A stretch of 64,000 nt of DNA. Source: Microthyrium microscopicum. Lineage: Eukaryota. The notes beneath the pieces are model-generated. The model did no database searches, was not told the origin of the DNA, and saw only the letters and a program-made list of their open reading frames with translations. Every line of letters begins with the position of its first letter. Within the stretch, counting starts at the first letter, position 1. A program made the position numbers and the translations under genes. The DNA lies in contig MU004230.1 in assembly GCA_010405405.1 (NCBI GenBank), positions 4,296,282-4,360,281 on the forward strand, read 5' to 3'. Below, in pieces: positions 133 to 21,617 of this stretch.

Positions 133-567
133 TAGTATTATTAGGGTTCTGCTTATCCCCTCCCTAAAAACCTAGAGGAATAATTCATTACTTAATTAGA
201 AGGCGCCTAAAGCAAAGCATAGATAACTTTCAAAGCCTACTCTTTCTATTCTCTTTCTTCTTACTATAAAATATTCTATCTTAAGATTATTATTATATTA
301 GAAAAATCTAAGAACATAGACTTAAAAGAAACTTTATAGCAATTCTAAATTATTACTTTTTACTCTCTTATCTTATATTATAGTTACGATATTAATAAGT
401 AAAAAAAGTAATTTCTAGGAAGGATAGTTTAAAGAGGCTAATTTTTATACTTTATAGGGTGCTTTTTAAAAAGCTACTAAGCAAAAGCTTTATTTTCTAA
501 CTAATAAACATTATAGAATTCTAGTTTATAATTTTAGGGGGGGATAAGCAGAACCCCAATAATACTA
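133..567. mobile_element. RIP-mutated MITE (Tc1/mariner-type, TA target duplication)
   Basis: ~37-bp terminal inverted repeats: TAGTATTATTAGGGTTCTGCTTATCCCCTCCCTAAAA (133-169) vs the reverse complement of 532-567. TA at 131-132 and 568-569. Interior is AT/TpA-rich with no ORF. The TAGT end is the expected RIP product of CAGT. Confidence 0.85.
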
Positions 568-776
568 TATCCATAGCACATTCCTTAAGGATTATAATAT
601 GTGATCCTTATGTGATGAAATAGAAACAATACTCACGGCAATTATCGTGCAGAACACAGACAGTCAGGCAAGCCTGAATTAGATAGTATCTGAAATTGGG
701 CAAGAATCAATCAGGAACCTACTACACATACAATCATCACTCGAATGCTCCTATGCAAACCGTTCAAGTGCTGAAC

Positions 777-2412
777 CTACCTCTCCACTACCACCTGATC
801 CCTATCAGCCCTTCTCATCCTCAAACCAACCACACCAATACACGCCGCGCTAACAACAAACATAACAGCACTCACAAAAAGCGGCAGTCCAACCAGGATA
901 TCAACATGTGTATCCAGTCCCAAAGCAAGCATCTTCGGAAACAAGATACTAGCCGTCAATTTCCCAAAGATACTCGCTATGCTAAGCGTCGCCATTACTC
1001 TAGCCACCTTGGACTTGTCCACCAAACTCACGATATATGCTTGTGTAGCTGTTGGGAGTCCTTCGCCGAAAAGGTATATTACTACACCTGTGATGAAAAG
1101 CGTCGTTGTGTTGCTTAGACCAATTATCAAAGCGCCAACTGTAAGGAGTAGAGCACTACAGGCCATGATAACGAATTGACCAGCTTTAATGCCGAGCCAG
1201 GTAGCTAAGATGCGGTTGATGGCTGGTAGCATGATTGAAAAGTATATGAGCATGAGAAAACCTTGCATTGAAACGACGCTTGAGGCTTGTGGGAATGTCC
1301 AGTCAAGTTTTATGACGGGGTATTGGACGATGGCATACCAGTCGATTGCTTTGATTCCGGTGGCGGCGAAACATATTGATAGTGAGAGTAGGAGGATATT
1401 TATGACACCAACGCCGTTTACTGTGTCTTTGAAGCCTTGCATCAATCGTTCTAGGCGGGAAGACTTCTTCAAGTTTGGGATTTGGTCTGATCCGTTCTGT
1501 TCCTCGATTTGACTAGCAGTGCCGGATACAGGCCTCTTCTCACGGCTTTCATGAACAGTCTCTGGAAACAAGAATATCGATATCAGAGCGGTGAATATCG
1601 CGAGGTAGAGACTGACCATCAAGTTGACTTGTGGAGTTCCACTGTTGCCATCAAGATTCATTAGCCAAGCGCCGATTGGTGGACAAAACGTTTGAGCAAA
1701 GTACTGCATTGAAGTCGTAAGAAAGAATAACGAAGCTCGTTCCGTGGCTGAGGGCATGACATCCGTATAAGAGGCGAATAGCATTGCAAGTCCGATGTCG
1801 TAGTTCCCGCCAATTAGTCCAGGCAGTCCACTGAGATAGAGCGTCCATATCGGAACCTTTGGAAATGCCGTATCTATTCCAGTTTAGTAGATATCTCATA
1901 CCGACTTGAGAACACATACAGAGTACTACCCAGGTCGCGCAATTGATACAAACATTGACCTTGTGAAGCACAATCACAGTCTTGCGTCCATAACGATCAG
2001 CCACCCATCCCAAAGGGATCGCCCCGATCATTGCAGATAGCATGCGCACGAACATGATTAAGCCTGCAGTTTTTGCCAGATCTTTCTGTATGCTATCATC
2101 TTTGCAAAGTCGTTCGGGTATATGTTTCCCTAGATCCGCGAGTGGCGAATTGCGCTTCAGCCAGAATTCGTAGCAGTACATGGCTTCAATAGCTCGCATT
2201 GTGGCGACTTGCTTGACGAAATATTCAGCCTCATTGATAAAGATAATGGCGCAGCCTAGTAAGGGAATCCATCGATATTTTGGTGTTATTGTGGTGAAGA
2301 AAAGCCATTTTGTTCCTGCTGTAGGCTCTGCTGTGGTTGAGGAGAGATTGTCTGCGGATTTGGCTCGAGCAAGTAAAGGCTCATGTTCCATATTTTGGTT
2401 TCTGTTGGCCAT
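777..2412 (-). CDS. MFS transporter (SLC46/PCFT-like, multi-TM)
   Basis: ORFs 1651-2412 and 777-1784 join in frame through intron 1874-1919 (GTATGT..CTAAAC..TAG). MFS motif A (GWVADRYGRK) and many hydrophobic helices. Confidence 0.85.
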
Positions 2413-3222
2413 ATTTTTTGCTCAATTCATGATGCTCTTCAACTATTCTATGGTGGAGATAGTGGTACAAATGATCATTGTGATGAAAAGTCCGAACTCT
2501 GCAGTCTTGTACTAAATTTTGCTCGTGCAGTCCAGATGAACCATCTGTAACTCAAAAGGTAATGATGGAAGTTTGAACGATTCCATATTGCTGTTATCGT
2601 CCTTCTGAAGATCCACAACCTCATGCAGGTGCCCTCTGCTTCCGAGATCGGCATTACTGTAAACATCGAATAAGGGGTAGAAGAGAGGTTGTGATTTCCA
2701 GCGGGATTTCTGGAAGGATGGTACAGAAGGCAATATTATCTTGATAAGAGCTCGATTTGGTGCCATTCATATTGGCTGGTCCCTGAAAATATAAAAAGAT
2801 GGTCTTCGATGAAAACACAAAACTTCAGCCTTATACTCTATCACTGGAGTGTACAATTAGATGAGATTTCAACCATAGATTACATTTGCCATGCTGATAT
2901 CAATAGTAGTTTGTCTTTTCGATCTAGTAGACTGAACGCTTTGATCTGACTCGTCCGGGGTTTCACGAAGCAGTGTTCTCAGCTGTTGTCCGTGTTCTTT
3001 CCTCATCCCTTAAGCAAACGATTCAATTCTTTTCTAGATGAGCTCATTTCCTATCAAATTATTAGCTCCTCGCTGGCCTTTACATAAACCACCCTCCTGT
3101 ACTACTTCAATTTCTCTTAGACACCACTCTTCACCAATTCAATCTCTCACAAAAATCACCAATTGCTGAAACAACTTGACTTCTCTCAGTTCAAACATCA
3201 AGCATCTCCGAACACATTCAAG

Positions 3223-3809
3223 ATGTATCCATCCATCATCTTGGCCAGCCTTGCCGCTATCGCCGGTGTCCACGCCGCCATTGCACTTCCGCTCGAGTCT
3301 GCTTGCACTCCCATCGGCACCTCTACTACCTTGGAGCCGCATTATGTCACATCTGCTAGCCCGGAATCCACGTCGAAGAGTCATCTCATCATCAGCTATC
3401 CTACTGTGATCCCGGCCGGCTCCGTCAGCAAGCCTTCCGTTACCACTTCAAGTGCCATCCCAACTACTACCAACCCATCCAACCAGTTCACCTATGATTC
3501 AAACCCACTGTGCGACATCTGCGATAGCTATTGCCAAGTGTGCACCAACGGCCTATGTCCTTCGCACCACAAACACCCGAGTCGCGAAATAATCCGATCT
3601 CCGTGCCAGGAGTATTGCGAAATTCAGACTTGTCTTAACGGTAATGGCGGTAATCAGTGGGTAAGTTTTCAAGAGTTCTCCATGGTATTTGCAAAGTTCT
3701 TATTTGCTGATGTGACGATCAGTGCCGTGTAAACTGCGGTTATAGGGCTCTGAATGCTGTAGGAAATGATTGTGGTAACGTTAATGGTTATATCCCATTT
3801 CACGGTTGA
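3223..3809 (+). CDS. Small secreted Ser/Thr-rich and Cys-rich protein (effector-like)
   Basis: Signal peptide MYPSIILASLAAIAGVHA, S/T-rich linker and Cys-rich C-terminus. Intron 3661-3722 (GTAAGT..GCTGAT..CAG) adds exon CRVNCGY...FHG*. Confidence 0.7.
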
Positions 3810-5770
3810 AGATTCGGGATATCTTGTTGCTGGATTACTTTGTTGAGTGGCTTAAGTCTACTTTTCATGCTGGAGTTGATGGCGTGTGATGTAGTGGTCA
3901 TTAGAGACCTCTTGTGTGATGAATTGATCAATTGTTACTGAAACACAGATCTGAGATCCGTTTTGTTTTCGTGATATTTGCTGAGTTCTCCTACACAGGT
4001 ATGTAGCCTAAGGACCATCGGGCATGATCATCTCGAGTTGTGTGGTGGTTATAATAGATGGTAGTTGGCTCGCGCCCTGCTTCCCAGCACCTGCCCCAGC
4101 TACAAAGAATCTGGGGCAGCGTCAGGGGGTAGTAGGTAAAATGCTGAAGATAGATGTCGTTTGCACATAGATTGAGCCAAGAGCAGAGTCTGATCATCCG
4201 TTATGCATGGGCGAGATTCTCTTGGGAATTGACAGGTTGGTTTTGACGAAGCCTGTTCATCTTTATTTAACTTGACTCTGACAAACAACCAGTCGTCTAA
4301 ACTCTGCAAAAACTGTATCCGTATTGAAGAGACGACCGCGTTTTTCTGATGTGGAAGGTCCGGCGGTATACCTACATAATAAACGGAGATACTTCCGTCT
4401 TAGCCCACCCTCTGGCCTTACGGAGGACCGTCCTCATTAGAAGTGATGTTGTGCCTAAAGGGACCGATTTAACGCGCTCTCAGACCAGTCCCAAACCACG
4501 AACGAAATGTGAAACAGATCTCGGAGAATACAATTCTTGATCGATATCGATATTGTAGATTTACCTCTGTCCACTAAATGATTGGATATTGTAAGGACAT
4601 CAAGTTACCATGGTAATCGATTAGATATCAAGTGGATTTCCAGAATTGTTTATAGCACTGCCAATTAGGAGTGGAAGCTAAGTAATCCCTGAGGAGGCAA
4701 GAACCAGTGAAATGGGGCGAAAGTGGATATTAGCACCATTTAAGGGATTTGCAGGCAACAAGTGGGTGCGCAGGGCCAGATCGAGACCAGGATGCAACAC
4801 GGGTGTTTACCAGTCTTTTTTTCTTTGCAACACAGCAACGAAGACACTCGCATGACGGATCTGCCCGGGCTCCCATGTCCGCAGCTTTGTGCCATCAGAA
4901 CGAAACAATTGTTGACAGGTTGGTAGAGAAACAATGAGGGTTGATTTGGATGGTTTCGTATATCCACTGGTTCAGTGATAGTTTGCGTGAACTGCGTCAA
5001 GACTTTCTTCTAGAAGGAAAGTCTATTACGCAACGTCTACAGCTAAGAGGATTTATTTATACATGCGTTCTGCGCAACCCCCTCTTCTTGACGGTTCTCC
5101 CCTCTGCAGGTGCGGCAAGGCAAATTGGAGCAATACGCCTCAGCTAGTCATAAGAAGGAATTGGGCTGAGGCTTGGAAATATACGCAGCCAGTGAGAGGG
5201 AGAGTCTGGACGAGATGTAGACGCAATTGGATGGATGGTTGTGTCAGGGGGGAGGTAAATGCGGTGTTGTGGGTGCAGATTCGTGTTCCATTCAACCTGG
5301 CTAGAGGGGATTTTAAGCCGCCTGGAGAGACGAGGCTTGACTGCTTTGGGGGGAATTAGTGAGTGCATGCAGGATGCGCGCTGCCCCGGAGATGGAGATG
5401 GGGCCTGGTCCATCTTTGTGGTGCTTTTGTGGTGTAGGGAGGCAAGGAGGTCGAGAGGCTGTGGATCGTTGACTTTTTGCTGTCACTCACTCTCCGCTTT
5501 GATTATTCTTTCTCCATCAAGACTCTTGTTGATGGCTTTTGGCTGGCAAATTGTCGCTGTACTCTAGCCTGGGCCACTGTGTTTCTCTCGTTTCAAAACT
5601 TTTACACTGTCACTCGCTCTCCCATAAACCCCCTCTTCCTCAAAGACGCCAAACACCAAGTATTTTGTCTGTCGATCCATTAATTACCATTGCCAATTTT
5701 ACACTGGCAACAAGGTCCTTGCTCTTCTTCATCTCCTTCCATCCTTCGCTCCAAAACCCTAGGTTGCGCT

Positions 5771-5805
5771 CACTAGCGGATATTAGGGGCATTTTAAATC
5801 GTCCT
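5771..5805 (+). repeat. Left terminal inverted repeat of CACTA element
   Basis: CACTAGCGGATATTAGGGGCATTTTAAATCGTCCT matches the reverse complement of 17646-17680 at 33 of 35 positions. Confidence 0.95.
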
Positions 5806-6149
5806 GTGACTGTGCTGTGACGCGTTTTCTCTAGCTACTAATTCAAAATTGATAGCGTCCTATGACGCCTAGTAGTAGATACCATAGTACGTCCAAATCG
5901 TTTATAGGAATTATACGTCTCCATAATAAATAGTACGAGGCGGGGACGGCTTAACGCTAAGCCGTCTTACTAATAAATAAGATAACGCTAAGACGTCCTA
6001 AGGCCGTAGAACGACTTATAGTTAAAACGTCTTAGTGCTAGGACGTTTACTCGTCTATAGCTTCCTAAAGCGGATAGGATTTTCCCTTTACTCTAGGGTA
6101 GCCTAGGTTCTTAATTAGGGAAAGCGCGGTATAGAGTAAGCATAATTCA

Positions 6150-6680
6150 TTACAGGCTAGCTACTTACAAGCCCCTTAATATAGCACGATCTAATCTTAT
6201 CTAGATCTTATCCTACTACCTATCTAATCGCCCTAGATTAAGATCCTAGATCTAGTCCTCTACTCTACTACTCTACTATTACTAACCTCTCTACTAACCT
6301 CTACCTAAAATAAGATCTCTAACTTTCTAAGTCCTTTCGTGCCTTAGGAATCTAGGAATGTGGATAGATATTAGCTTGGCCGTCCTTTAAATCGACGATT
6401 GGTAAGTTATTAATTATATAAATCCCTTAAGGGAGGATATAGTAGGCAAGAAGGCATTAGATAGTATAGTAGTAGATATAGCCTTATATAGGTTGCTGTA
6501 GGATGGAAGATAGCGTATTCTATAAGCCTTAGCGGATTGTTTTTAATCTATAGTATAATCTAGCGTAGTTGAGGAGCCCTTAGCGGGTCGTTGTTTTAAC
6601 TAGGTATTAAGGTTCTAGGGTAAAAGGGGCTTTAGAAGTCGTAAATCGTCGTGAATTCCTTAAAGTTTGTAAGCATAAAG
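6150..6680 (-). pseudogene. RIPed ORF relic inside CACTA element (unknown product)
   Basis: Minus-strand stretches read as protein-like (e.g. PIVDLKDGQANIYPHS*IPKARKDLES*RSYF), with stops consistent with Trp/Gln codons hit by RIP. Boundaries approximate. Confidence 0.35.
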
Positions 6681-7219
6681 CATTTAGAAACTTTAGGGGC
6701 TTAGTAGTAAGTTTTCGAATAAATAATTCGGTACTACTTAGTTAGCCCTAATATAAGCAATAGTATATTGAGAAGGATACGAACTTATATTAATCTACGT
6801 GTAAGTATTAAATATATACCGCCTATATAGTAGATAGCTCGCATCGTAAGATATTAGTTTAATATATTAGTATTTACTATTAAAGATTATAGTATTAAGT
6901 TCTTACTAGTTAATTATATGTCCGTTCCGTCTAGTTATTGGAATCTGCCGATAGTTAGCTATAATCCTAAGAACCCTTAGTTTTATAGTTAGCTTTTATA
7001 TTCACCTTCCTCTCGTCCCCCTTTTATACTACCTCTCTTATTAAACGTTTTTAACAACATATTCGCCTACTGTCTTTATACTAATATGTAATAGTTTAGT
7101 ATTAGCATATATACCTTAAAGTTATCTACTATTATATTTTATACTTACGAAGCTAGTCCCTCCTCTCCTTCTGTATAGGCTTTACCTTCCTTTATATTAT
7201 TAGTTAATCTGTTGTACTA

Positions 7220-8620
7220 GTTATGCTAAATATAAATAGTATCTAAAGATATACGTATACTATAACGTAATAACGTTACGTTCTAGTTCGTAAGATATAT
7301 ACTAGTATATAGGATTACCTTCGTGTTATATAAGACGTTAGTAATATTAATAATAGAGATTAAAAAGTAGCACGCTCTTATTTAATTACTATAGGCTCAT
7401 TTAGTCCCTTAATATAAAGAGACTAAGAGGGCATATAATAGGGTAGATAGGGTAGACGGGGAGGCTAGATGTCTTATGGTATATAATAGTCTTCTACTTG
7501 AGCTAATAAATTTAATACTACTAGTAGGTTAGCACTAATACTAGCATATATTCTATATAAAATAGGATATAGAGAAAGACATATAACGCGACTATGCATA
7601 TATAGTTATAGGGAAGAATGGACGTAAATACTTAACTTTAACGCAGCGAGGCACTATCGATATAAGTAAGCTAATTTAAGGGTTGTGTCGTTAATTATAT
7701 TTAAGTTAGTATATCGCTTTATAATACTAATAAATATTAAATAAAAGTATATACTGAACGTAGCAGGATAGCCTTAGCATAATAGGTATTTAGAACTACA
7801 TACTCCGTACTTAAATATTGCTAACGTACAAAAATAGATAAATAAATAAGCCTACTGACCTTTGACACTATAAGCACTATATTAGAATTTAAAGACGAAG
7901 CGAGGCGTGATTACTATTAGTATATTTGAGGCGTAGATTATATTAAGGTTAGTTCTTTTATGACACGAAATAGGTATAAATTAATAGTAAACATTAAAAC
8001 GTATACTAGCTAGTATAGTATAATATTTATAGTATAGTAAAGATTGCAAGCTTATACTCTGTATCTAGATATTACTAAACTTTAAGCAAAATAAACAATA
8101 GACGCTACTAACCTTTAAATTCTTTTCTCTAAATATTGTATAAGATTAAAAGAAAGTAGTTGTACTACTACTTATTAGTTATTAGAATATAGAATATTGA
8201 ATATTTAAGCATCGCATCGTATTAATTAGCTTGTTAACTACTATGAAGGGTGTTAATAATAGTCCGCTAGGTTATAGAGAGGTTCTATAAATTATATACG
8301 GACAATAGCATAAAGTTTAAGAGCGTGTTAAACAACGGGTTAGTAATAAATATTTCATTACAAGGCATAGAGGTTAATTATAGATAGGTCGCGAATCTAT
8401 ATAGGGCTGTGGATATCTAAAGATACACTAAATATCTTTTATTCTAGAACCTAACTACTTATTCTAGGGTCGTCTAGTAATAACGAGTTGAGAATCCTTT
8501 GGGTATAATTAGATTCTAAGGTATCTAGTCCAAAGTCTAGTCTATGGTATAAATCTAGAAGCCTAACCTTTCATAGTCCTATATAGTCTTAATAATAATA
8601 GAGAAATAGAGCAAAGCTAA
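7220..8620 (+). pseudogene. RIPed intron-containing ORF relic inside CACTA element (unknown product)
   Basis: Plus-frame stretches such as FDTISTILEFKDEARRDYY*YI*GVDYIK followed by GTTAGT, and KYFITRHRG*L*IGRESI*GCGYLKIH. Boundaries approximate. Confidence 0.4.
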
Positions 8621-8956
8621 CTAGAAACTAGATTTCGGATAATAACTTTATTTACAAGGAGTTAGTATATACTAGTAAATATGTAGCTAGGATGACCTAC
8701 CTTTCGTTTCTATTCTGTATACTAAAATATTAGACAGATATATTTAATAAGCTTTTTAATGTAATAAAACAGAAAAAATAAAAGATAACACAATATAATG
8801 CTTAGCTAGTCTGTTAGGCAGTTAATTAGATTAAGTTGGACTTATATAAAACTAGATAGGTAGGCATAAGATAAGTAGAGAAATAGGTCAACAAATAGTA
8901 CTAATCGACAAAGTAGAACAAAATAGCTAAGTAGTAACTTGACGCTAGAGCTTAGC

Positions 8957-11900
8957 CTATATAAAGGTAATATTCTAATTAACGTAAATAAAGCTATTAG
9001 CCTTATCTGTAGCTGAAAGAGCCTACTAGCGACCGCTATGCTTAAATAGTACGGCGTAGATATACTTTAGCTAAAGTATTCGGAGTCCTACTAGATCGAC
9101 CTAGTTAGTAATCTAAAGAATGTTGTAATCTATAATACGATCCTTAATCGAGTTATAGATAATAACCTTATCGATATATAGGAACATACGTCGAGTTTTG
9201 ACGGTAGGTAGCTTAGTAAATTAATACATAGCTATAGCTTTAATATATCTAATACGCCCTTAGCCATAGTAAACAAACTAGCCTATCTTTATTATTAAGT
9301 GATGTTAAGTATTATTAATTATATTAGTGATTATAATAGGTATTTAGGACTAAAACTTACGGGTTATTAAACAAGATGCTTTTAAACTAGGTAATAGCCA
9401 ATCGCTTAAGAAATATAGCTGACTCTTTATAATCTCTATCGTAGGCGTTGAGTAATATACTGCGAAACTTATCTTTAAAATAGGGATTACTATCCACGGA
9501 CTTAATAAAAAAATGTAGTATTTTAGCATAGAACTTTCGTAAGATTTTAAAGCGAGCCTTTAGTGCGAGGTATATAAGATTATCCGTAACCTTTATAGTG
9601 TTTACTAGGGTATCCTCATTATTATCATTTTCTACTTTTTAGTTGGACTTTAGAAGTAACTGAGTAAATAAGTTAGGAAGACGTATTTATAGGTGCTTAA
9701 GAGTAAGAGAGATCTCCTTCTTACGAGTTATGTTTATATAAGCCCTAAGGAGTGCGAACTAGATTCCTTAGCTTTTAGCCTTGCGAACTATAAAATTGTA
9801 ATAAGATAGCTAATAGTTTATATTCTTAACGTCGTTCTTTGAGTCGTAATGCTCTCCCTCTCTACTAAAAGTGGTATAGTTGCTATTACCTAAGTATTTA
9901 TTAACAAGAATAGGATAGTGTAGACCAATATAGATATTTAGACGAGCTTAGACGTTTTGATAGAGTACTGCCTTTAAAGTATTCTTTTAGCTTGCTAGAA
10001 TGTTAACGATGCTTAGGTTAGTATAATACTGCTTAATTATATAAGCTAGGGTAGTAATAGCAGTATTCGCACCGAACGGGGCTATATCTAGCGATAGTAT
10101 AGATATTAGCGACGGTATAGATATTAGCGACGGTATAGATATTAGCGATGGTGTAGAAGACGAAGTAACTAAAGGTAATGGTGTGCTCACTATAGCGACC
10201 GTACTTAGAGTAGCATGGCAGCTTCGCGCTTACGATATTTATTATGTACGAGGATTAATTATAGCTACCTATAAATCGTACTCGAAAAGTTTCTAAAATA
10301 TAAATCGTGCGCGTAGTGCTTACTATACGTAGGTAGCTTAATCTTTAAGCTGAATATTAGTACTTAGGTATAAGCGGTTAGATTGGGCAATAGATTTAAA
10401 GGCTAGAACTAATATATCGTATAAAATATCCGTATCTTAATCTGTCTGAGTAAAGAGCTTAGCTCGTTTGCTATTAAGCTCCTAAATCTCGTTAGTAAAT
10501 ACTATCCGCATAGCTTTAGCGTAAAGTAGCTTAATAAATTTAGGTTAAAGCTAAAGTAGAAGCAATATATTAATGATAATTAACTAACGACTATGTTCCT
10601 AAAGCGTAAAGCTTTTAATATGTGTAGTTGGATTCTAAATATAACCCTAGCCGTGTGGTAAAGGAAAGCTTTAAAGAATCCTACTATAAGTATTAATCTA
10701 ATTAAGCTTAATAATAGCTTTAATGAACAGAATATAAAGTTGCTTAGTTAGTCCTTTTAACTCGGAATAAGCTAGATCTGAAGGACGACCTAAGATAAAA
10801 TCTAATCCTAGAGCGAGCTGTGGGAGGCACGGCTTCACTTTATATCTAGTAGTAGAGCTAAACGCCTACTTCTTCCTAATACCGTTGATTTTAGTTATAG
10901 CTTCGTAAACTTACTTAATACTAAAATAAAAGCGACTATGAGTTGTAGTATTAAACCCTAAGAAAGAGCGCTTACTCTCATTAATCTAATAGGATTGATA
11001 ACCTAGTTTCGCATTTTATAATAGCATCCCTAAGTTTGCTTACTATTAGGATATATCTCTAACAAACGCGTAGATATAGGCACATAAGCGGACCTTACGC
11101 CCGTTGATAGTAACCTTAACCTTACTAGTAGACAAGAATCAAAGGTATCCCTTAATAACATTAACAAGAGAATCTTCTAAACAACTATATGGATTAAGAG
11201 TGTAGGGAATAATATTTGAGCTATAATTACGCTCGCGATGTAGTAAACTAGTAAGAAATATATAGATACCTATAAGAGAACGATGTATAGTACTATACAA
11301 TCTAAATCTATTAATGAAATATATTAGAGGGATAGATATAACGTCTACGTCTTTATTACTAGCTAGAATGAACGTAGTCTTAAGTACTTATTAACTATAC
11401 TTCTTAATCTTGATTTCCCCTTATAGTAAATGGCTCTAACACAGTAGACGAAGGCCTAAGGTAGAGTTAAATATTTAACGAATAAACGGAGTAGTAGGAG
11501 TTGGCTTGTTAAGCAGCAAATCTAGTATAATCTAAGGAGCACCGTACTCTTAATCTATAACAAAGGTGCAGGTTGGAGCTATTATAAGGTATATATATAA
11601 AGCGTTAGTCTTAAGAATAATCGACATACGGTCCTTAATAAGAATGTACTCGTTACTTGCTATAGGCGCTAGTAGTCTACAAGCTAGTTAGATAGGGAGA
11701 TTGTTCTTATGTCGAGGTACTAGTATCTAACTTAAGTCTAGCGTAGGCTACTTTGTTGAAGTATCTTGTGCTAATTTCTTAAAGGCGCTTATAAAATTAG
11801 TATTTATTGCTACCTCTTCGCGAGATAAAGACTATATGCCTAAACCCTAGCGTTTTTTAAGCGTGCTAGTAAGCCAAACTTTTTATACCTTAATAACGGG

Positions 11901-13280
11901 TTTTCCTAGTAGTCCTTTATAGTCGCAATATAATTAAAAGTCCTTACTAAAGGCAATAATATAACTAATATATAAATGCTAATCTAGGCTTACAAGACAT
12001 TGTGCGTAGCTATTATTATTACATTAGAACTATACAAAGTTAGATAGAAAGACGGATCGTAAGTAGTTAAGCTATAAATCCTAGATGAGAGTAAATTTGC
12101 TAGACGAGGCGCGAATTGATGATGCCTAGGCGTTGCCCTCCTAGAGTTCCTTTAGATTGTTAATAAAGTAGGCTATATTAGTGTAAAGTTTATCTTTAAT
12201 TGCCTAAGAAGTAACAACGTTACGAATTAGCTTAAGGATATTTAGGAAGAATACGTCACCCTTAGATATGTTTATACCTTAGGTTAGATCTGTAGCTAAG
12301 ATTATTAGAAGCTATTTAATCTTAAGGTTAACCTCCTATTAGTGAATCTAAATACGTAGAAGGTAGTTTTTAAAGTAGTCCTTAATTATGTCTAACGAGC
12401 TAGGAAGCTTCGCTACAAGAAGGAGGGTTTAGATATTAATTATCTTGAAGATGCCTCGCAAACTTTAATACTGCGTCCGTGAGATACTATAGCCTTTATA
12501 CTATAATCCTAATACTAACTCTAATTTAGACGGAAGCTTGCGATTAGAAGGTTTAGAGGTAGTATTAGAGGTTAGTAATAGACGTTTCTTTTTCTTATAG
12601 TTAGCTAAAGGGTTATAGACTCGCGATGCTTCGCTAAGAGGAACTAGTAGACTATTAGACTTAGTAGTATCTATTGAAACTTAGATAGTTATAGAAGTCG
12701 AAATGTCTAGCTATAGGAGGTTAAGATCAACGGTAAGATCATAATTTGGATTAATGTCTTCGTTAGGGATATTTTCTATGAGATTAATAGCTTATAAAGC
12801 TATGTCTATAAGGTGTGCTTGAAGGTCTATATCCTGAACGACTTAATCGACATTCTCGTCTATATATCTAGTAATAGCGGTAGCAAGATTATCTTAAGTA
12901 TCTTCCTCTATAATAGAAATGTTCTATTTCTAAAGCAATATAGTTGTAACCTGAAGATTATTAGTAACCTATAAGAATGTAAGTAAGAAATATATAACTA
13001 TAGTGATAGACAAAAGACAAACCTTATCTTAAAGCTCTAAATTTACTTATTAGTTAAGGTTAGCAAGTGTAGTGGTAGGTATATTATGCTTAGCTTTAGC
13101 GTATTCAATAGAACTAAAGGGCTTATTATATCCGCCTATTAGCTAGTCGTCTTATGCTTTATCTTGTTCGTCGTCGTCTAAATCTATAGCGACTAGAGCG
13201 AACTTAGAATAACGACGAAGTTAATACTTATCGTCGTCGTGCTCTAACTTATAGTGACTATAACCTACTATAATAATGGC
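8957..13280 (-). pseudogene. CACTA/CMC-family DDE transposase, RIP-inactivated
   Basis: Reverting only TpA to TpG/CpA restores motifs in the expected order: FINRFRLY->FIDGFGLY (~11295-11318), RDIS***ANLG->GDMSQQQANSG (~11028-11060), GYQSY->GCQSC (~10990-11003), SDLAYSE->SDPAHSE (~10771-10791), RLNIYIGLHY->RPNIHIGLHY (~9915-9945), REGEH->GEGEH (~9849-9863). Stop at 8957; start approximate. Confidence 0.8.
10089..10157. repeat. 18-bp tandem repeat (~4 copies) within the transposase relic
   Basis: TAGCGACGGTATAGATAT units, giving in-frame 6-aa repeats on the minus strand. Confidence 0.85.
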
Positions 13281-13346
13281 ACTGCTCTAATAATAGTAGA
13301 AGCGCAATATTATAGAATTAGTTCTTAGTAGTTATAGTAAGGATGC

Positions 13347-13424
13347 GGATAATAAAAGTGGATAATAAAAGTAGATAATAAAAGTAGATAAAGGAAGTAG
13401 AGGATAAAAGTAGATAATAGTAAA
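13347..13424. repeat. 13-bp tandem repeat (~6 copies) between divergent transposon ORFs
   Basis: RGATAATAAAAGT units, degenerating towards the right. Confidence 0.8.
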
Positions 13425-13861
13425 GAGAAATGCGGAGGGGTTTTAAGGCAAAGTATGAGATAAAGTTAGAGAAAAAATTTAAGTTTAGGTAGTAAATAAT
13501 TATTTAGAAGGAGCAATTACTATTAAAGTAGTACTAAAGCGCCCCTCTTGCTATTTGACAAATTTAAGGTAGTGTTTTTAGCCTTTTATAGCCTTATTAT
13601 AGTCTAAGCGCAGCCTCGCGATACCCTAAATGGTAGTAGGGAGTTAGAAAAAGAGAAGGCACGACAAAGACATTAGCAGGCGCGGCTAGAAGGCCAGAGT
13701 TACGCGACGCGACCTCAAAAAGCTATTATTAAATTATATATATATATACTCTAGTTCAATTGTTTCCTTCAAGCTGATCTATAACTAGACTCTTATATCG
13801 ATTAATTGCCTCTAAGCAAGTAAATATACAGTCAAGCTGTTGTTCTTGCAAACATTAAATA

Positions 13862-15720
13862 ATGCCAACCCCTCCGTCTTCTTCGCCGTAGCCTTCTCTT
13901 ACGTAGTTAAGTAGCTCGTTTAGCGAGATTATTAATCTAGATCATCCTAACTATATCTATATATATACTAACTCCGATTAGTTCCACGATATACTGCTAG
14001 GTGTAGCAATTAAGATTTATAATTGCCTAACGCTAAGCTAAATATAATAGTAAACTAAACAGATTATGCCGCAACCAAGGCTTGAAGCTATAAAGGACTT
14101 CGCGATGTAGTGGTAGCTAGATACTATGTCCATTTTGCTAGCCATAGCTCGTAAATTAGAATAGTATATAATAGCGATAGCGCATAACGACGAGCAATTA
14201 TTAAAGTAAAGAAGCAGCTAGTTTACAATCCAATTTAATATCATTACTTAGTAGATTAATTAATACGTATTAAACTATTTAGTGCCTATCTAATTGCCCC
14301 TGCTTAAAGCTAAGAATAATAATATAGGCTACTAATTATACTAGCGTTGGTAATGTTCTTAACGCCGATTTAGTTGACGTAGAGCCCTTAGCGAACCTAC
14401 TGTTATATCCTTAGTAGTGTGAGCCTTCTTACTATTCCCGCCTAAAGTAGTATTATTTAATATCGTAGTAAGCGGCTGGCGTTAAGAAGCCCTAAAGCTT
14501 TATACTTATAGTCTTATAATATAAGGCTAACAAGCAATGCATATATAGTCCGACTATACCTCTAGACTCTGCAAAGGCGATTTAGGTAGCTTAAAAGTTA
14601 GTTATCTTAATAAGGTATAAGTAGAAACTATATAATATATTAGCAAAGAATAACGTAGCCTATAAATATAATATCTGCTTACGAAATGTTAATACTATAT
14701 TATCTTATAGTCGCTTGTGACTCTATTATGGTATTATAAGACTCTTAGTACATAGATCCTAGATACTAATGCTAACTAGTACTTAGGAATAACTAATTAT
14801 GTTAGTATATAAAGGAATCCTATTAGGAGGATATATAGTAAGCATAAGCTAAGCGATTAGTAGTAGCCTAGGGTATAGCATAACTTGCTAGTTGACAATT
14901 AGTAAGTAGATCTATAGGTTAAAGATGACGAAGTATTATGAAGTTTACGCGATTATATAGTCTTATATCCTATAGTAATAAACGCTATAAAGAATTCTGA
15001 GTAAGAAACAAGGCGTAAAGGGACTCTAAGGGAATAAGAAACTCTAAACGATGCTGCTAAAAGTAATATAAGAATAATTATATAAAAATAGTATAATAAT
15101 AATATAGGAATAATGGTATAAAGAAAGTACAAATAGTATAAGAATAAAATAATAATAATATAAGAAACACTATATAAATATGCTTCGTAAAAATATACTC
15201 TAAGTAAAAACTCTATAAAACTCTATAAGACTTTATGCTAATAAATACTAAATAAAAATACTAACTATTAAGATTAAACTCTACCTCGACGAGGCGCTTA
15301 GCGACGCTCTTAAGGGTAGCGACTAGCTTCTTAGAGGTAGAAGCCGACGTAATTACTATAAGCTAGAAGAAATCTTCCGAGCAAAGAAGGTTGAAAATTT
15401 CTTTTCGATACGCTAGAATATCTTAGTAGTCTAATATTACGTCCTTAGACGTATTTACTAAAGCTAAATTTGCTTTAATAGACTCTTTTTTAGCCGTGAG
15501 CTTGGCTTAGCGCTAACGTACTGCTAGAATACCTAGCTAGATAAACTGTTCTATAATAGTATTAGTATATATGTATAATCTAGAGCAATAGTTATAATAT
15601 ACCTAAGTACTAAGCTTTTCTAAGCTTAGAGGACTTTTCTAAGTCTAAGTACTCTTTTATAAAGTTGAAGAGCTATAAAAAGGACGTAAAAGAGTAGTCT
15701 AACTAAAGTTAAGTTTTAAT
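13862..15720 (+). pseudogene. RIPed second large ORF of the CACTA element (divergent from transposase)
   Basis: ATG at 13862 (MPTPPSSSP*PS...) and long protein-like stretches (NYTSVGNVLNAD; GRSRRNYYKLEEIFRAKKVENFFSIR) broken by RIP-type TAA/TAG stops. End approximate. Confidence 0.5.
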
Positions 15721-15852
15721 AGCATTGTCAGACAAACTAAGATCTTACAAAACTATACGATCTTTTATATAGCTCGCGATATAAGTCTACTTTATATTAG
15801 TATATAGTCTTATAATCCTAATCGTATGATTAAAGTAGTAATTTAATAATTG

Positions 15853-15965
15853 TTACGTATATATATATATCTATTTATTTAATAAGAAATTTAATAACTA
15901 ATTACATAGACTGTTAGATAGATTGTTGAATATATTATTAAATAAATAGATATATATATACGTAA
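15853..15965. repeat. Short inverted repeat/hairpin inside the CACTA element
   Basis: TTACG(TA)nTCTATTTATTTAATAA at 15853-15885 and its reverse complement at 15935-15965. The arms differ by one TA unit. Confidence 0.75.
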
Positions 15966-16129
15966 TAAGTATTAAAATAAATAAAACTTTGGAATAGTAT
16001 ATAACTTACGTAAAAGTTAGAGATAGTACGACTCTTAAAATTCCGTATATTTCTAAGATATAAATTATACGCACGCACGCGAGCTAGTCCCTACACACTA
16101 TACTCTAAAGTAGGCTAGAGCTCTTCTAC

Positions 16130-17081
16130 AACCTATTCTATAAACTAGTTACTGTAAAAAATAAAGGAATAGAAGCGCTTAGCTTGCCTTAAAGCTACCT
16201 CCTTCTTAGTCGCACGAGACGTAGAGTTAACCTTTAGTACCTTAGAGGCCTCTCTAGTTAACCCTAAAGACTAATTGTCCTAAGTGACTTTTAAGAGCTT
16301 AGCGGTAATGGTTTAGGCTATGGCGGCCGCTTTCTTAGTAGTAAAAGTAGTAGTAGTAGTAATAGTAGTAAGCGCTTTATTATTTAGTATAGTAGTAGTA
16401 GCTTTAGTAGCCTCTTTAGTGGCTTTTTAAGCAGTAGTAGCAGTAGACTCTAAATCTTTATACGCGATATCGTTACGCTTACGCTTCTCCGTTACTCTAA
16501 GGGCGCTAGTTATACCTATAGCAAGGGATTTATGAAGCTTAGCTTTGTTTTTCTACTCTACTAGTTAGTACGGCTTATTAATATTAATTAGGTATAATAA
16601 AATTAAAAAGAAGATTTAGTAGAAAGTGATATATTAATTAAGAAGAACATAAACTTAGTACACATGCCTAGTAGTAAATCTTAGTAGTAATGCTAATTAC
16701 TATAAGGCTATACTTAGAGATAATAGATAGACTAGAAGCATCGTATGTAATAAGTATAGATCTTCTTGCTATATTACATACCGATTCTAAAATACAAAGT
16801 GCTTAAAATAATAAGCTATAAATATATAATTATAGAATTGGATATAATTAGACGAAGAAGAAAAGGATAAACAATCTAGTATTTAGAAAGAACTATATAC
16901 TTATAATAGCTAAGAGCGACGCGGCTATATACGGATTACGCGTATAGGAGGAGGAAAGGGTAGTAGCCTAGAGGATGGTAGGCACTGTGTTGGTAGAAGA
17001 GGGCAGGTTATTAGTAGAAAGAGTAGGTTAGCTATTCTGGCTATTCTGGCTACTAAGGGCGGTAAGCTTAGTAGACGACAT
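16130..17081 (-). pseudogene. RIPed ORF relic (Ser/Thr-rich N-terminus, possible Cys cluster, Ala/Lys-rich C-terminus)
   Basis: ATG at 17081 (MSSTKLTALSSQNSQNS*P...), intron-like gaps, then KNKAKLHKSLA...EKRKRND...KKAAAIA. The ACT runs are likely RIPed GCT codons. Confidence 0.5.
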
Positions 17082-18042
17082 AATAAGTAAAATTAAATTT
17101 TTTAAAGTTACAAAATTCAATTTGACGTGGCCTAAGATTTTGAGGTAAAGTCGTGATCGTATCTTAAGGTAGAAAGGTAGACGCGAGACTGACGCTAAGC
17201 CTCCTAATTAAATCGCACTAACCTAAAACGCCCTAAATATACTAAAATTGCTAGGACGCTTTATTTATAGGACGCTTTAATAAGTAAGCATCCTATTATA
17301 GTATTAATAGTAAACGTTAATATTTTATACAGATATGCTATAAATCGTATAGCGAAGATATATTTATACGTTGAACGTCTCAAGTTTGAATTATCTTAGT
17401 ATAATATAATATCTGTACGTCTCTATTATAAACCGTTCCTTTTAACTATTATATTACTACGCTTTCTTATTTAAACCGTACTGAGATAATAGTTTGCTTA
17501 TACTGCTTATAGCGCTAAGACGTCCCTCGCGCTAATTATCTCAATACGGGTTCTATAATAAACTATAAATACGGTCTACGTCCTAAATTCGTTACTATTC
17601 TTTATTTTAACCGTACTAATACGCTAGTGAACTTAAAGCCGTCCTAGGACGATTTAAAATGCCCCCGATATCCGCTAGTGCTTGCTGTGCTGGCCATTGC
17701 CCTCAAAATATTGATTAAACACCCATCAAAGACCACTACTCCTCCAGCAGTGCCCTCAACTCCCTGTATTTACTCGACCTAATTTCGGAACCGAACTACA
17801 AGTCTACAACAACACAAACAGCTGCCAGCGCCTCTTTATATAGGGGGTTACTGTTGCTTTGTTCTGGTTGCGCCTTTCGCTCGAGGCTGAGCGAGAGCCC
17901 TTTTCTCTCCCTTCCTTTCCTCTAAATATTACGTACTACCCGCCAGGTAAGAACGCCATCCCCTTGCTTCGTTGTTCCTCCCATCGTGTATGCGGAATGT
18001 GCTGTCGCCAGTCACGCATGCTAACCAATGCTCGGTTCCAGA

Positions 18043-21000
18043 ATGTCCGCTCAATCCTCACCACAACGTCGCGCCGACGCTCATACTCCCCGGCATCGAC
18101 TGCAAGACGAAGAATCACACGGCTACTATTCCTCCCCAGTATCGATTGCAAATTCCCCACAAACATTTGCTACAGACCATACCCGTAATACATCCACAAA
18201 CTCTCCTTCCCGCTACGACGAGCGACATAATCTAATGCCGGTCGGAGGCGAGCTCGGCCGCAAGAAAAGTCTTGTTCGGCACGATCGTCGCCCTCAACAC
18301 GATTCGAATCAACGCGATTATCATTATCGCCAACATGCACAGGGTAGAGATGTACACCCAAGTTCGACGGGGGTGGATCCCACAGCCGACGACGAGACGA
18401 TTACCTCAAGTCCCCCTTTACGAGAAAAAGGCTACGTGGATCGACGCGGATCGAAACTTCAGCGAAATCCGACAGTAACTACAAAGCGTAAGGCGCAAGA
18501 GCTACAACGGAGGCGAGAACGTGCTGCTGTCGTACCTTTGAGCCCGTGGGTTGCCTATTGCAGAATCGTCACGTTCTGGTGTCCTGATGTATTACTGCGC
18601 TGCTTTGGCATGCCAGCGAAACCACAACAACGCGCTTGGCGAGAAAAGATGGGACTTATAAGTCTTATTGTTTTCGTCTGCGCATTTGTTGGTTATCTCA
18701 CATTTGGCTTTACACAAACCGTCTGTCCACCAGGAGCTTCTCAGCGGCTACAAACAAATCATGTTGGTGGTGGATACATGATTTTCCAAGGTCAAGCTTA
18801 TAATCTGGCTGGCTCGCATCATCCTCTCGCTAGAGGCGTTCAAGATGGCGCTAATGTGGTCTATGATCTTCCTTATGGCGGATACGATGGCAGCTTTCTG
18901 TTCCAACAAGTAAATGGTGCTTGCAAGGGCCTCATTACGAAACAATCAACTTCAAGTCAGCCTGCTGATGCCAATGGAGACCTAGCTTGGTACTTCCCTT
19001 GCGTTCTGGTCAAGCAGGATGGTTCTTCGAAAGCGAATTTCACCACTCCTCTCTATAATGGGTTCCAATGCCATACTTCCAAGGACGCTCGACAAACATT
19101 TTACAACTTGGATAGCTTTGGTGATGTCTATTTCACCTGGGCTGATGTACGGAACACTTCCCGCAATTTGATGGTGTATGGAAGTGATGTTGTCGATCTC
19201 AATTATTTGACCTGGTTCAACACCACCGACGTTGCATATCCGAAGGAGTTTGATGAGATAAGAACCAACAGCGCCCTTCGCGGCAAAGACGTTACTGCCG
19301 CCTTTACCACGACACGGGAACGCCAAATCGGAAAATGTCTTACTCAAATTGCCCGTGTAGGGTCTGTAGACACTGCTACTATTGGTTGCATTGCCTCCAA
19401 AGTTGTCCTTTACGTCTCCTTGGTTTTCATTCTTGCCATTGTTATGAGCAAGTTTTTCCTTGCCCTTGCATATCAATGGTTCATATCACCTAGATATGGA
19501 GCAGCCAAAACTCAATATGGAAAACAGAGCAAGAAGGACCGCGCACAACAGATTGAAGAGTGGTCGGACGATATCTACAGAGCTGCTCCCCCCAAGATTC
19601 AGGATCCAGCTGCCGTTGGAAGTGACCGTGGCAGCAAACGTGGAAGTGTCTTGTTCCCTCGCACTTCTCGATTCACATCACCATACCAGATTGATCAGTC
19701 ATTTTCCAAAGGCAGACATGGACCTACAACCATGGCAAATCAGAGCACCAACTCTCGCGTTACCAGTCAAATGTATCAGAGTGGAGGAAACGGAAGCGCA
19801 AACCGAAGTCAAGCTACTCTAGACAAAGGTCGACCATCCACAATGATTGAGAGTAGAGCAAGCGTAATGGTTACTGGAATGGACGAAGAAGGCCCAGCTG
19901 GCTTTATCCACGACAAGGTTGTTCCTCAACCACCACCAGAGTTTCAACCATTCGGCTATCCACTTGTTCACGCAATCTGCTTGGTTACCGCCTATTCTGA
20001 AGGATACGAAGGTGTTCGCACAACTCTCGATTCTGTTGCTCGCACGGAATATCCCAACAGTCATAAGATTATCCTCATTATTTGTGATGGTATTGTTAAA
20101 GGTGCTGGTGAAAAGTTCAGTACCCCTGAAATCTGTCTATCGATGATGAAGGACAATATCACACCAGTGGACCATGTTCAAGCATATTCATATGTTGCAG
20201 TCGCCAGTGGCTCTAAACGACACAACATGGCAAAGATTCATTCCGGTTTCTACGACTACGGCGAGGACTCGCGCATCCCACTTGAAGATCAGAAGCGTGT
20301 TCCAATGATGATTATTGAGAAATGTGGTACTGAGGACGAGGCAAGATCTGGAAAACCTGGAAATCGTGGCAAGCGTGATAGTCAAATCATCCTCATGTCT
20401 TTCTTGCAAAAGGTCATGTTCGACGAACGAATGACCGAACTCGAATTCGAAATGTTTAACGGTATCTGGAAGGTTACTGGAATATCGCCAGACTTTTACG
20501 AAGTATGCCTTATGGTTGACGCCGATACCAAAGTCTTCCCGGATTCCTTGACGCATATGATATCTGCAATGGTCAAGGATCCTGAAATCATGGGTCTCTG
20601 TGGTGAAACCAAGATCGCCAACAAACGTGGAAGCTGGGTCACGATGATTCAAGTCTTTGAGTACTTCATCTCTCATCATCTCTCCAAATCTTTCGAATCT
20701 GTCTTTGGTGGTGTTACCTGCTTACCTGGATGTTTCTGCATGTACCGAATCAAAGCCCCCAAGGGCGCGCAAAACTACTGGGTTCCTATTCTCGCCAATC
20801 CGGATGTGGTCGAACACTACTCGGAAAATGTCGTTGATACGCTGCACAAGAAGAACTTGCTACTTCTAGGAGAGGATCGTTACCTATCCACGCTTATGCT
20901 CAAGACCTTCCCCAAGCGGAAACAAATCTTTGTTCCCCAAGCAGTCTGCAAAACGACCGTTCCAGAACAATTTCGCGTGCTTCTATCACAACGCCGTCGC

Positions 21001-21617
21001 TGGATCAACAGTACCGTTCACAACCTCATGGAGCTCGTGCTCGTACGAGATCTCTGCGGCACCTTCTGCTTCAGTATGCAGTTTGTAGTCTTTATAGAGT
21101 TGGTTGGCACACTTGTCCTTCCAGCAGCCATCACCTTCACTGTCTACCTCATCGTCATTGCAATACTTTCCGCAATACAGCATACACCAGCTCCGATTAT
21201 CCCACTGGTGCTCTTAGCGCTCATTCTAGGTCTCCCAGCCGTTCTCATCGTCGTCACCGCACACCGCTGGTCCTATGTCGGCTGGATGTTGATCTACCTG
21301 CTATCTCTACCAGTATGGAATTTTATCCTACCTACCTACGCCTACTGGAAATTCGACGACTTCTCATGGGGTGAGACGCGCAAAACGCAGGCGGAGAAGA
21401 CGAAGCAGGGCGGTTATGAATATGAAGGAGAATTCGACAGCAGCAAGATCACCATGAAGCGCTGGCATGATTTCGAAAAGGGTAAGTTCCACCATCATCC
21501 TCCAACCACATAACACCATCTAACAAAAAAATAGAACGCCGAATGAATCAATCAACCGGCTGGTCTCAAGCTCAAACCTCAATGGTCAACTGGCCACCCC
21601 ATGGCTACGAGCAGTGA
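18043..21617 (+). CDS. chs4: Chitin synthase, class IV (yeast Chs3 / Neurospora CHS-4 type)
   Basis: AWREK, cytochrome-b5-like region, [43 protein letters not shown] and DDFSWG motifs; no myosin motor. 5'-UTR intron 17947-18041 and last intron 21482-21534. Confidence 0.95.

Follow-up and report, generated by a model that had tools for sequence, protein, structure and literature searches.

The element and its ends

The window, by which we mean the whole stretch of DNA analysed (64,000 nucleotides of contig MU004230.1 of Microthyrium microscopicum, GenBank assembly GCA_010405405.1, positions 4,296,282 to 4,360,281 of the forward strand), contains at positions 5771-17680 an element of 11.9 kb bounded by inverted repeats. 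We read it, with a probability of roughly 80%, as a copy of a formerly autonomous cut-and-paste transposon that carried two tandem genes on the minus strand, one for a transposase and one for an accessory protein, and that was inactivated by repeat-induced point mutation (RIP). A preliminary description of the same DNA had proposed about five open reading frames (ORFs) in alternating orientation; two genes on one strand in place of these five is the chief correction made here. The coordinates of all features are collected in Table 1.

Table 1. Features of the element, in window coordinates
Feature	Position	Strand	Remarks
CT, left copy of the apparent 2-bp target-site duplication	5769..5770	.	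read from the sequence
Left terminal inverted repeat	5771..5810	+	starts CACTAGCGG; inverted-repeat pair of 40 nt, 90% complementary; end pattern matches both ends only
Left subterminal region, (A)CGTCC(TA)/GGACG in both orientations	5771..6120	.	CGTCC at 5800, 5856, 5890, 5994; GGACG at 5944, 6041
No recognisable gene, about 2.8 kb downstream of the transposase	6121..8962	.	no Pfam, tblastn or periodicity signal; ORFs proposed earlier at -6.15-6.7 and +7.2-8.6 kb lie here
Transposase, C-terminal part, in another frame than the core	8963..9304	-	profile positions 1026-1123 of 1124; 11.9 bits, E 1e-5
Transposase core, single frame	9360..12593	-	40-relative profile, positions 84-1022 of 1124; 407 bits, E 3e-127
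Transposase, probable N-terminal, poorly conserved part	12594..13442	-	same low-stop frame as the core; periodicity over 12371-13570
Spacer between the genes, no recognisable gene	13443..15621	.	no homology or periodicity; most of the ORF proposed earlier at +13.9-15.7 kb lies here
Accessory gene, second conserved block (..YxDxEKSSxL..)	15622..15738	-	7.9, then 10.4 bits with the broader profile
Accessory gene, probable intron	15739..16012	-	GTAAGT at 16010-16005 directly after the first block; intron of the relatives at the same place
Accessory gene, first conserved block (..R.xSFxF(H>Y)SN....R..N.R.xK..)	16013..16198	-	3.1, then 6.2 bits with the broader profile
Right subterminal region, CGTCC/GGACG	17330..17680	.	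CGTCC at 17521, 17579, 17640; GGACG at 17647
Right terminal inverted repeat	17641..17680	-	pairs with the left arm; at least two other copies exit at 17680 and 17681
CT, right copy of the apparent 2-bp target-site duplication	17681..17682	.	read from the sequence

Both inverted ends begin with CACTAG (CACTAG..CTAGTG, with CAC..GTG termini), as the preliminary description had noted, and a 34-nt pattern of the ends found matches in the 64-kb window at these two places only, with 0 expected from 100 shuffles. The CT beside each end, also noted before, could be read directly, the junctions being ..GCGCT/CACTAG.. on the left and ..CTAGTG/CTTGCT.. on the right. The flanks agree over 2 bp only: over 3 bp they are unequal (GCT on the left, CTT on the right), which supports the apparent duplication of 2 rather than 3 bp. 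A 3-bp duplication can be read here only if the final G of the end is counted twice.

The subterminal GACG repeats that had been reported were confirmed as well. CGTCC/GGACG occurs 19 times in the element, ten of these inside the terminal 2 x 350 bp, where 1.1 would be expected (binomial P 3e-8, and 1e-5 after scaling to the CpG distribution), and two further GGACG, at 17254 and 17270, lie just beyond the right subterminal region. Of the longer form CGTCCTA, six occurrences were counted in the terminal regions and two in the 11.2 kb between them.

Transposase gene

The transposase relic spans roughly positions 8963-13442 on the minus strand and corresponds to a protein of about 1,300-1,490 aa, the upper value including an N-terminal frame not matched by the profile and the gap near 9.33 kb. 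Its presence, already recognised in the preliminary description, is established by the profile match of the core given in Table 1; this single-frame match includes the region of a BAH-like insert, both catalytic aspartates (D1 and D2), a C(2)C and an H(3)H motif and the catalytic glutamate. The last 100 or so profile positions are matched in a different frame, which points to an intron or frameshift near 9.33 kb. On the N-terminal side, the 3-base periodicity was strong in the range listed, and the coding signal reaches about 13.5 kb.

To find relatives, the minus-strand frame 12992-9393, with stop codons written as X, was used as the query of an exhaustive HMMER search. This search returned 511 proteins at E<=1e-3 and 59 at E<=1e-30, the best at 1.8e-52 with about 28% identity. 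The 511 are cluster representatives, and 40 of them were used to build the family profile. A word-indexed protein search with the broken transposase frame, the longest low-stop one, gave no match although these 511 relatives exist, and such searches are therefore unsuited to RIP-damaged queries.

The state of the gene agrees with the earlier statement that RIP hides the copy from ORF callers. There are 64 in-frame stops in 1078 codons, distributed over 33 TAG, 30 TAA and one TGA, so that 63 of the 64 are TAA or TAG. Of the residues deviating from the family consensus, a quarter (25.6%) could be reached by C>T or G>A changes alone, compared to a mean of 10.7% and a maximum of 14.1% in 200 codon shuffles used as a control. 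In the catalytic site D1 has become N (AAT), with D2 and the glutamate retained, and a QQQ after the second D was turned into three stops. The zinc site shows changes of the RIP type as well: C(2)C reads Y..Y and H(3)H reads Y...H. The window copy is unable to encode either the transposase or the accessory protein.

Two short tandem arrays were observed in the transposase ORF. One, at 10089-10157, consists of three 18-nt units coding for a repeated SLISIP; the other, at 13335-13419, has five 13-nt units and lies near the N-terminal end.

Transposase family

The residues expected of a DDE transposase are nearly invariant among the 40 aligned relatives. In the numbering of relative P0001, D461 is present in 39 of 40, D544 in 40 of 40 and E920 in 35 of 36 sequences. 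The zinc residues C563 (40 of 40), C566 (39 of 40), H896 and H900 (37 of 37 each) all lie between D544 and E920. The second aspartate is separated from C(2)C by 19 residues, and H(3)H from the glutamate by 20.

Evidence on the fold comes from an AlphaFold model of P0001 (pLDDT 81.8, pTM 0.82). In Foldseek this model gave 44 PDB matches at E<=1e-3, all of them RAG1 or RAG-like proteins and the best at 6.6e-7; HzTransib followed after the RAG matches with E 0.027. With VIA-align, residues 97-924 of the model were superposed on residues 461-966 of RAG1 with Z 12.9 and a root-mean-square deviation (rmsd) of 4.4 over 429 aligned residues, and HzTransib reached Z 10.3. In the RAG1 superposition E920 falls at or near E962, the site of the mutation in PDB structures entitled RAG1(E962Q). 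The family profile searched against PDB sequences gave nothing significant, the only rows being chance-level ones with E 1.5 and 5.6.

Ahead of the predicted catalytic core, residues 211-433 of the P0001 model match the BAH domains of ORC1, AIPP3, DIM2, MET1 and DNMT1 with Z 8.0-8.7 in VIA-align. The corresponding region of the window lies at 11.4-12.3 kb. The Pfam BAH model did not detect this insert in the 12 top relatives or in the 40 aligned ones.

Pfam placed the family close to, and below the limits of, a single known group. No family was found for 11 of the 12 top relatives, and the twelfth, P0011, matched Plavaka (PF18759) with 24.5 bits, below the gathering cut-off of 26.3. Eight of the 40 aligned relatives matched Plavaka weakly at E<=0.1, the best at 5.4e-6; no tested relative was seen above the gathering score, and the window itself had no match to this model in a six-frame scan. 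Transposase_21, 23 and 24 had no match in the six frames of the window, in the 12 top relatives or, at E<=0.1, in the 40. Having no Pfam model of its own and only these sub-threshold matches, the family is indeed poorly described, as had been supposed, and its lineage may already bear a curated name.

The CACTA-Mirage-Chapaev-Transib-Plavaka (CMCT) clade comprises, in the available text of Kojima 2025 (PMC12730594), EnSpm/CACTA, Mirage, Chapaev, Transib, Plavaka, ESTA, Lanisha and RAG1, with CA..TG termini in most cases and target-site duplications of 2-5 bp. The DDE triad, the C(2)C/H(3)H zinc residues, the CA..TG termini (in the window copy) and the RAG1/Transib fold of the modelled relative were all found here. 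On the conserved DDE and zinc motifs and the RAG1-like fold predicted for this relative, we therefore assign the transposase family to the CMCT clade. This upholds the general attribution made before, a class II element of a CACTA-related clade in a RIP-competent ascomycete; membership of canonical CACTA or En/Spm was rejected, as the window and the 40 relatives have no match to Transposase_21/23/24 and a 3-bp duplication was not found. Plavaka proper was also considered and rejected: no match reached the gathering score, and the termini are neither TGT..ACA nor CATCA..TGATG. Lanisha, another candidate name for the family, was set aside, as it apparently stems from a paper on a moss genome.

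Accessory gene

A second gene was recognised by comparison of 49 related loci, which a scan with the family alignment had found in metagenome contigs. Clustering of the ORFs of loci of at least 4 kb gave one cluster of neighbours beside the transposase, with 11 ORFs in seven loci. Another cluster, of nine loci, lay on the opposite strand within the transposase matches and was taken to represent antisense frames; the remaining clusters were few and small (three loci at most), and those that could be placed fell within or beside the transposase matches. In this all-against-all comparison the accessory ORF is the sole non-transposase neighbour found in at least three loci, and no third gene common to the relatives was seen. 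A profile of the accessory protein matched 13 of the 49 loci, and eight of the 11 in which the sequence upstream of the transposase extends for at least 2.5 kb. The gene usually lies upstream of the transposase and divergent from it; in locus L003 it is upstream on the same strand. In both complete relatives (L035 and L003) it is found within the inverted ends.

In the window, the relic of this gene spans about 15.6-16.9 kb on the minus strand, upstream of the transposase. Its two conserved blocks are colinear on that strand, and in 200 simulated elements the highest score was 2.2 bits, none reaching the 3.1 bits of the first block. Periodicity of 3 bases was significant over 15971-16570 (P 1e-9) and 16271-16870 (P 1e-5.6). 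The ORF that the preliminary description had put at -16.1-17.1 kb overlaps this gene on the same strand; it is the only one of the four extra ORFs to overlap a supported gene, and the other three found no support. The probable intron between the blocks, of about 235 nt with the palindrome described next, compares to 60-70 nt in the relatives. It contains an AT-rich palindrome of about 140 nt (15839-15979) with arms of 38 nt (89%) and 30 nt (90%), which could be a small insertion.

The accessory protein belongs to no Pfam family and gave no usable match in the ESM Atlas. A word-indexed protein search with one accessory ORF had no match, and a profile search of 5.8 billion proteins gave 10 matches only, one of them named, a hypothetical protein of the Pezizomycete Tricharina praecox. 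The model of the protein of locus L007 consists entirely of helices (pLDDT 76.8, pTM 0.71). Among 48,161 chains compared in VIA-align, the Homeo-Prospero domain of Drosophila (1mij_A) came first with Z 8.2, an rmsd of 3.5 and 132 of 139 residues aligned, and the next-best chain had Z 5.1; in Foldseek, the most probable row was the human Prospero homeobox (2lmd), at 0.54. The accessory protein may thus be a sequence-specific DNA binder, the likeness of its predicted fold to Prospero being a lead and not a finding.

The contig of locus L034 holds two transposase copies in opposite orientation (476-3820 and 6767-10016) and an accessory gene at 10718-11260, which is divergent from the second, minus-strand copy. 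The two may be neighbouring or nested elements of the family.

Complete relatives and apparent target-site duplication

The ends of relatives were sought with blastn-short. They were clear in L035 and, later and by eye, in L003, and doubtful in L045. The two complete relatives measure 7.4 kb (L035) and 6.5 kb (L003). They start with CCTTAG and (A)ACTAC, their termini being CC..GG in L003 and AA/AC..GT/TA in L035, and CACTA ends can consequently not be upheld as a trait of the family. The ends of L003, CCTTAGTGG and CCTTAGCGG, resemble that of the window, the 9-mers CACTAGCGG (window) and CCTTAGCGG (L003) being alike; blastn of the window element against L003 found nothing past these first 9 bases. 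L035 was seen by eye to have its own repeats, CCTTAT/ATAAGG, under its ends.

All three complete elements are flanked by equal dinucleotides: CT in the window, TA in L003 and CA in L035, the last of these on condition that the element is taken to include an unpaired end base in front of ACTA. In the available text of PMC12730594, PlavakaA has 2-bp duplications and TGT..ACA ends and PlavakaB has duplications of 2-3 bp and CATCA..TGATG ends. A 2-bp duplication is probable for the three elements, in agreement with Plavaka-type elements and in contradiction to the 3 bp of canonical CACTA.

RIP damage and other copies

Inside the element the GC content is 0.32, TpA/ApT is 1.65 and (CpA+TpG)/(ApC+GpT) is 0.42, compared to 0.44-0.48, 0.65-0.79 and 1.26-1.31, respectively, in its flanks. 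Base composition and RIP indices switch exactly at the ends of the element. This shift is the signature of RIP, confined to the repeated unit, and it suggests a filamentous ascomycete as host; the intact chitin synthase gene beside the element marks the host as a fungus.

Evidence for further copies was obtained from contigs of public sequencing runs aligned on the element. Four runs of one sample, probably that from which the window derives, contain it, and two of these were aligned. In both runs further contigs align at 80-95% likeness, and the differences are strongly directional: C>T changes numbered 442 and 549 and G>A changes 488 and 612 in the two runs, compared to 84 and 89 T>C and 105 and 118 A>G in the reverse direction. 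The summed contig depth in run X1 was 190-340 along the whole element and 106-114 in the flanks. As contigs and depth cover its full length, the repeated unit is the whole 11.9 kb and not the transposase alone. At least two diverged contigs exit, at 17680 and 17681, into different, unrelated flanks, and the right end is therefore confirmed by independent insertions. A further diverged contig, 86% alike, is colinear over 8269-10047. In run X4, one contig joins position 10604 to 14899 and skips 4294 bases, its shorter side having just 25 letters; an internal deletion in that copy or a join made by chance may explain it.

These data also bear on the idea that a chance pair of inverted sequences happens to surround an AT-rich RIP island with a transposase pseudogene, which would then not be an autonomous element of a family of its own. 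Only one copy is readable in full, as this idea would allow. The two-end match of the 34-nt pattern (0 expected), the switch of the RIP indices at exactly these positions, the stop of other copies at the same right base and the likeness of the end 9-mer to that of L003 all speak against it, and we attach next to no weight to it.

Stretches outside the two genes

The 2.8 kb downstream of the transposase and the spacer between the genes contain two of the ORFs proposed earlier (-6.15-6.7 and +7.2-8.6 kb) and most of a third (+13.9-15.7 kb). For these, neither homology nor periodicity nor an unusual scarcity of stops was found. In Pfam scans, in which X stood for stops, neither the six whole frames nor 16 selected ones gave anything below E 0.1, the only rows being two at chance level (0.1 and 0.55); RIP lowers the power of these and of every other homology search. 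Searched by tblastn, the ORFs of at least 80 aa from related loci of at least 4 kb matched the transposase only. Periodicity of 3 bases, which survives RIP in both supported genes with a strength similar to that in the neighbouring chitin synthase gene, was not significant over 5771-8470 and 13271-15970. The best low-stop scores, 155 and 175, compare to a median of 120 and a 95th percentile of 181 in the Markov null. Stop-codon density was itself rejected as a test for ORF relics, as the true transposase frames also fall within the second-order Markov null. The spacer may include the 3' end of the accessory gene.

The arrangement of the preliminary description, a large CACTA element with about five alternating genes in divergent and convergent pairs, one for the transposase and four for accessory or cargo proteins, all hidden by RIP, has to be judged on these results. 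It would account for an element 4.5-5.4 kb longer than L035 and L003, and for a minus-strand stretch at 7477-9066 that is low in stops (25 in 530 codons); moreover RIP cuts search power, the window scoring 407 bits on the profile of its own family. Against this stand the empty Pfam scans, the related-locus ORFs that match the transposase only, the relatives without a common third gene, the missing periodicity and the low-stop scores within the null, and the two genes that are supported lie in tandem on one strand. We consider five alternating genes improbable, and the evidence gives a transposase and one accessory gene instead of several accessory or cargo proteins.

A second explanation of the size starts from a compact two-gene transposon of 6.5-7.5 kb that gained one or two unrelated insertions before it multiplied, so that the extra 5 kb would be foreign. 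The size gap to L003 and L035 fits this as well, and so does its distribution: the excess falls into two blocks, chiefly into one of 3.2 kb downstream of the transposase, with another 1 kb or so between the two genes. GC is 0.28-0.29 at 6771-8770 and 0.33-0.35 in the transposase, and the palindrome in the probable accessory intron could be counted on the same side. However, no internal inverted or direct repeat pairs were found at blastn level and the element has no match to the rest of the window; the other copies cover its full length at roughly even depth, and one of them is colinear across the boundary at 9.0-9.4 kb. The same absence of internal repeat pairs and the same full-length coverage argue against nested elements that would carry the extra ORFs between ends of their own. 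As other copies cover the whole length, the extra blocks belong to the unit that multiplied here. A composite of this kind is in our view unlikely, although somewhat less so than five alternating genes. The extra blocks are either non-coding parts of the family or old insertions or cargo that RIP erased before or during multiplication.

Interpretation

We infer here the transposition chemistry, the 2-bp duplication as a rule of the family, and the roles of the accessory protein and of the BAH-like insert. The transposase, with a core of the RAG1/Transib type formed by an RNase H-like DDE triad and a C(2)C...H(3)H zinc site, would recognise the inverted ends of about 40 nt, cut the element out and reinsert it with duplication of 2 bp of the target. 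The accessory protein would probably bind DNA, most plausibly the (A)CGTCC(TA) repeats under both ends, in a role that would resemble that of TnpA in En/Spm or of the Myb-like partner in PIF/Harbinger. The family multiplied in the genome, and RIP then turned its copies into AT-rich DNA. More tentatively, the element may represent an unnamed and widespread RAG1/Transib-like lineage of filamentous ascomycetes with a two-protein system, in which a BAH-bearing transposase acts with a Prospero-like partner that binds the subterminal repeats; we regard this extended proposal as possible and distinctly less secure than the reading of the copy itself.

Several observations weigh against these readings. 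The arrangement of both genes on the same strand is a minority one, seen otherwise in L003 only, with 11 loci divergent and L030 having a downstream match. The window's matches to the accessory profile score 10.4 and 6.2 bits, which is weak in absolute terms. Both fold predictions concern relatives (P0001 and L007) and not the broken genes of the window, the Z of 8.2 for Homeo-Prospero is in a range where the tool warns of a common helical arrangement, and all Foldseek E-values for the accessory model exceed 0.8. About 5 kb (6.1-8.96 and 13.4-15.6 kb) has no recognisable gene, in an element whose complete relatives measure only 6.5 and 7.4 kb. The 2-bp duplication is read from three elements, in one of which (L035) the boundary was chosen. 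L003 is also flanked by a 40-nt direct repeat (about 7293-7332 and 13872-13911, by eye); insertion into a tandem repeat is its best reading, and it may be an unusual repair product. Finally, no left flanks of other copies in the genome were found among the contig matches listed.

Comparison with known transposons

Plavaka DNA transposons (PF18759) were reportedly described by Iyer et al. in 2014. Plavaka is the only Pfam family touched by the relatives of the transposase, and the flanks CT, TA and CA of the window element, L003 and L035 would fit its duplications of 2 or 2-3 bp, on the count of three elements only. The element differs from Plavaka in that all Pfam matches of its relatives stay below the gathering score and that its own ends are CACTAG..CTAGTG. 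The families reconstructed in the available text of PMC12730594 come from Agaricomycotina, whereas the present host is subject to RIP and the one accessory homologue with a name belongs to a Pezizomycete; the same portion of that paper mentions neither an accessory protein nor a BAH-like insert for Plavaka.

With En/Spm the element shares the wider clade, CACTA ends (in this copy), packed subterminal repeats and the combination of a DDE transposase with a second protein. TnpA of En/Spm binds subterminal repeats. The two En/Spm proteins come from one alternatively spliced unit, whereas the present element has two separate genes, an apparent 2-bp duplication and no match to Transposase_21/23/24. 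Furthermore, no sequence family common to the accessory protein and TnpA was detected, and the ends of the relatives are not CACTA.

The likeness to RAG1, ProtoRAG (BbRAGL) and Transib lies in the predicted fold of P0001, which can be laid on the RAG1 core 461-966 and on HzTransib with the Z-scores given above, in the spacing of the motifs (D2-19 aa-C(2)C and H(3)H-20 aa-E) and in the position of E920 near RAG1 E962. Sequence identity is only 10-13%, a RAG2-like partner is missing, and the BAH-like insert is a feature of the present family. Transib duplications are 5 bp.

PIF/Harbinger elements offer an analogy, as they too combine a DDE transposase with a separately encoded helical DNA-binding partner, the binding being a proposal in the present case. 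Their transposase belongs to an unrelated superfamily and their partner is Myb/SANT-like. The PIF/Harbinger duplication is given as 3 bp, TAA/TTA, in the available text of PMC12730594. A Starship, finally, would have a tyrosine-recombinase captain at one end and tens to hundreds of kb; the enzyme found here is a DDE transposase, the element has 11.9 kb and 40-nt inverted ends, and the six frames gave no Pfam match of any kind in a search whose power RIP lowers.

For ascomycetes, the CACTA-Transib-RAG1 clade of cut-and-paste elements is poorly documented. In the available portion of a 2017 survey, the fungal CMC entries of Repbase come only from Basidiomycota and Mucorales (PMC5751038), and a table in the accessible text of a 2014 Zymoseptoria annotation includes 'CACTA En/Spm' (PMC4522978). 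The kind of element is itself already known, within the CACTA-Transib-Plavaka-RAG1 clade; the novelty lies in two features, an accessory protein that is conserved and unannotated and, in a transposase resembling RAG1, the BAH-like insert. A repeat ruined by RIP is linked in this way to a large protein family that has 511 cluster representatives and no Pfam model, and annotators gain a means to recognise such AT-rich blocks. For transposon biology, it offers a testable two-protein system in which the BAH-like insert could link insertion to chromatin. If the two-protein reading is true, histone marks could guide insertion through the BAH-like domain, and the accessory partner would represent a novel type of DNA-binding protein in transposons, one that is hardly ever annotated by gene callers.

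Neighbourhood of the element

Rfam and tRNA scans of positions 5000-18500 gave no matches. Runs X5 and X6, which are from a second organism, contain short pieces identical to the window at a depth of 2-5, compared to about 83-148 for their own contigs; these pieces look like a carry-over of DNA between libraries rather than shared sequence. Aligned on window positions 4771-18680, the two runs yielded no empty insertion site. Positions 1-500 of the window are likewise rich in AT and have RIP-like indices (GC 0.29, TpA/ApT 1.45, (CpA+TpG)/(ApC+GpT) 0.70) and are probably the edge of another RIP-affected repeat. On the other side, 345 bp separate the right end of the element from the start of an intact ORF of 1162 aa for a chitin synthase (18025-21510), with a Chitin_synth_2 domain (E 5e-286) and a CHS4-like domain, and this gene is free of spread RIP.

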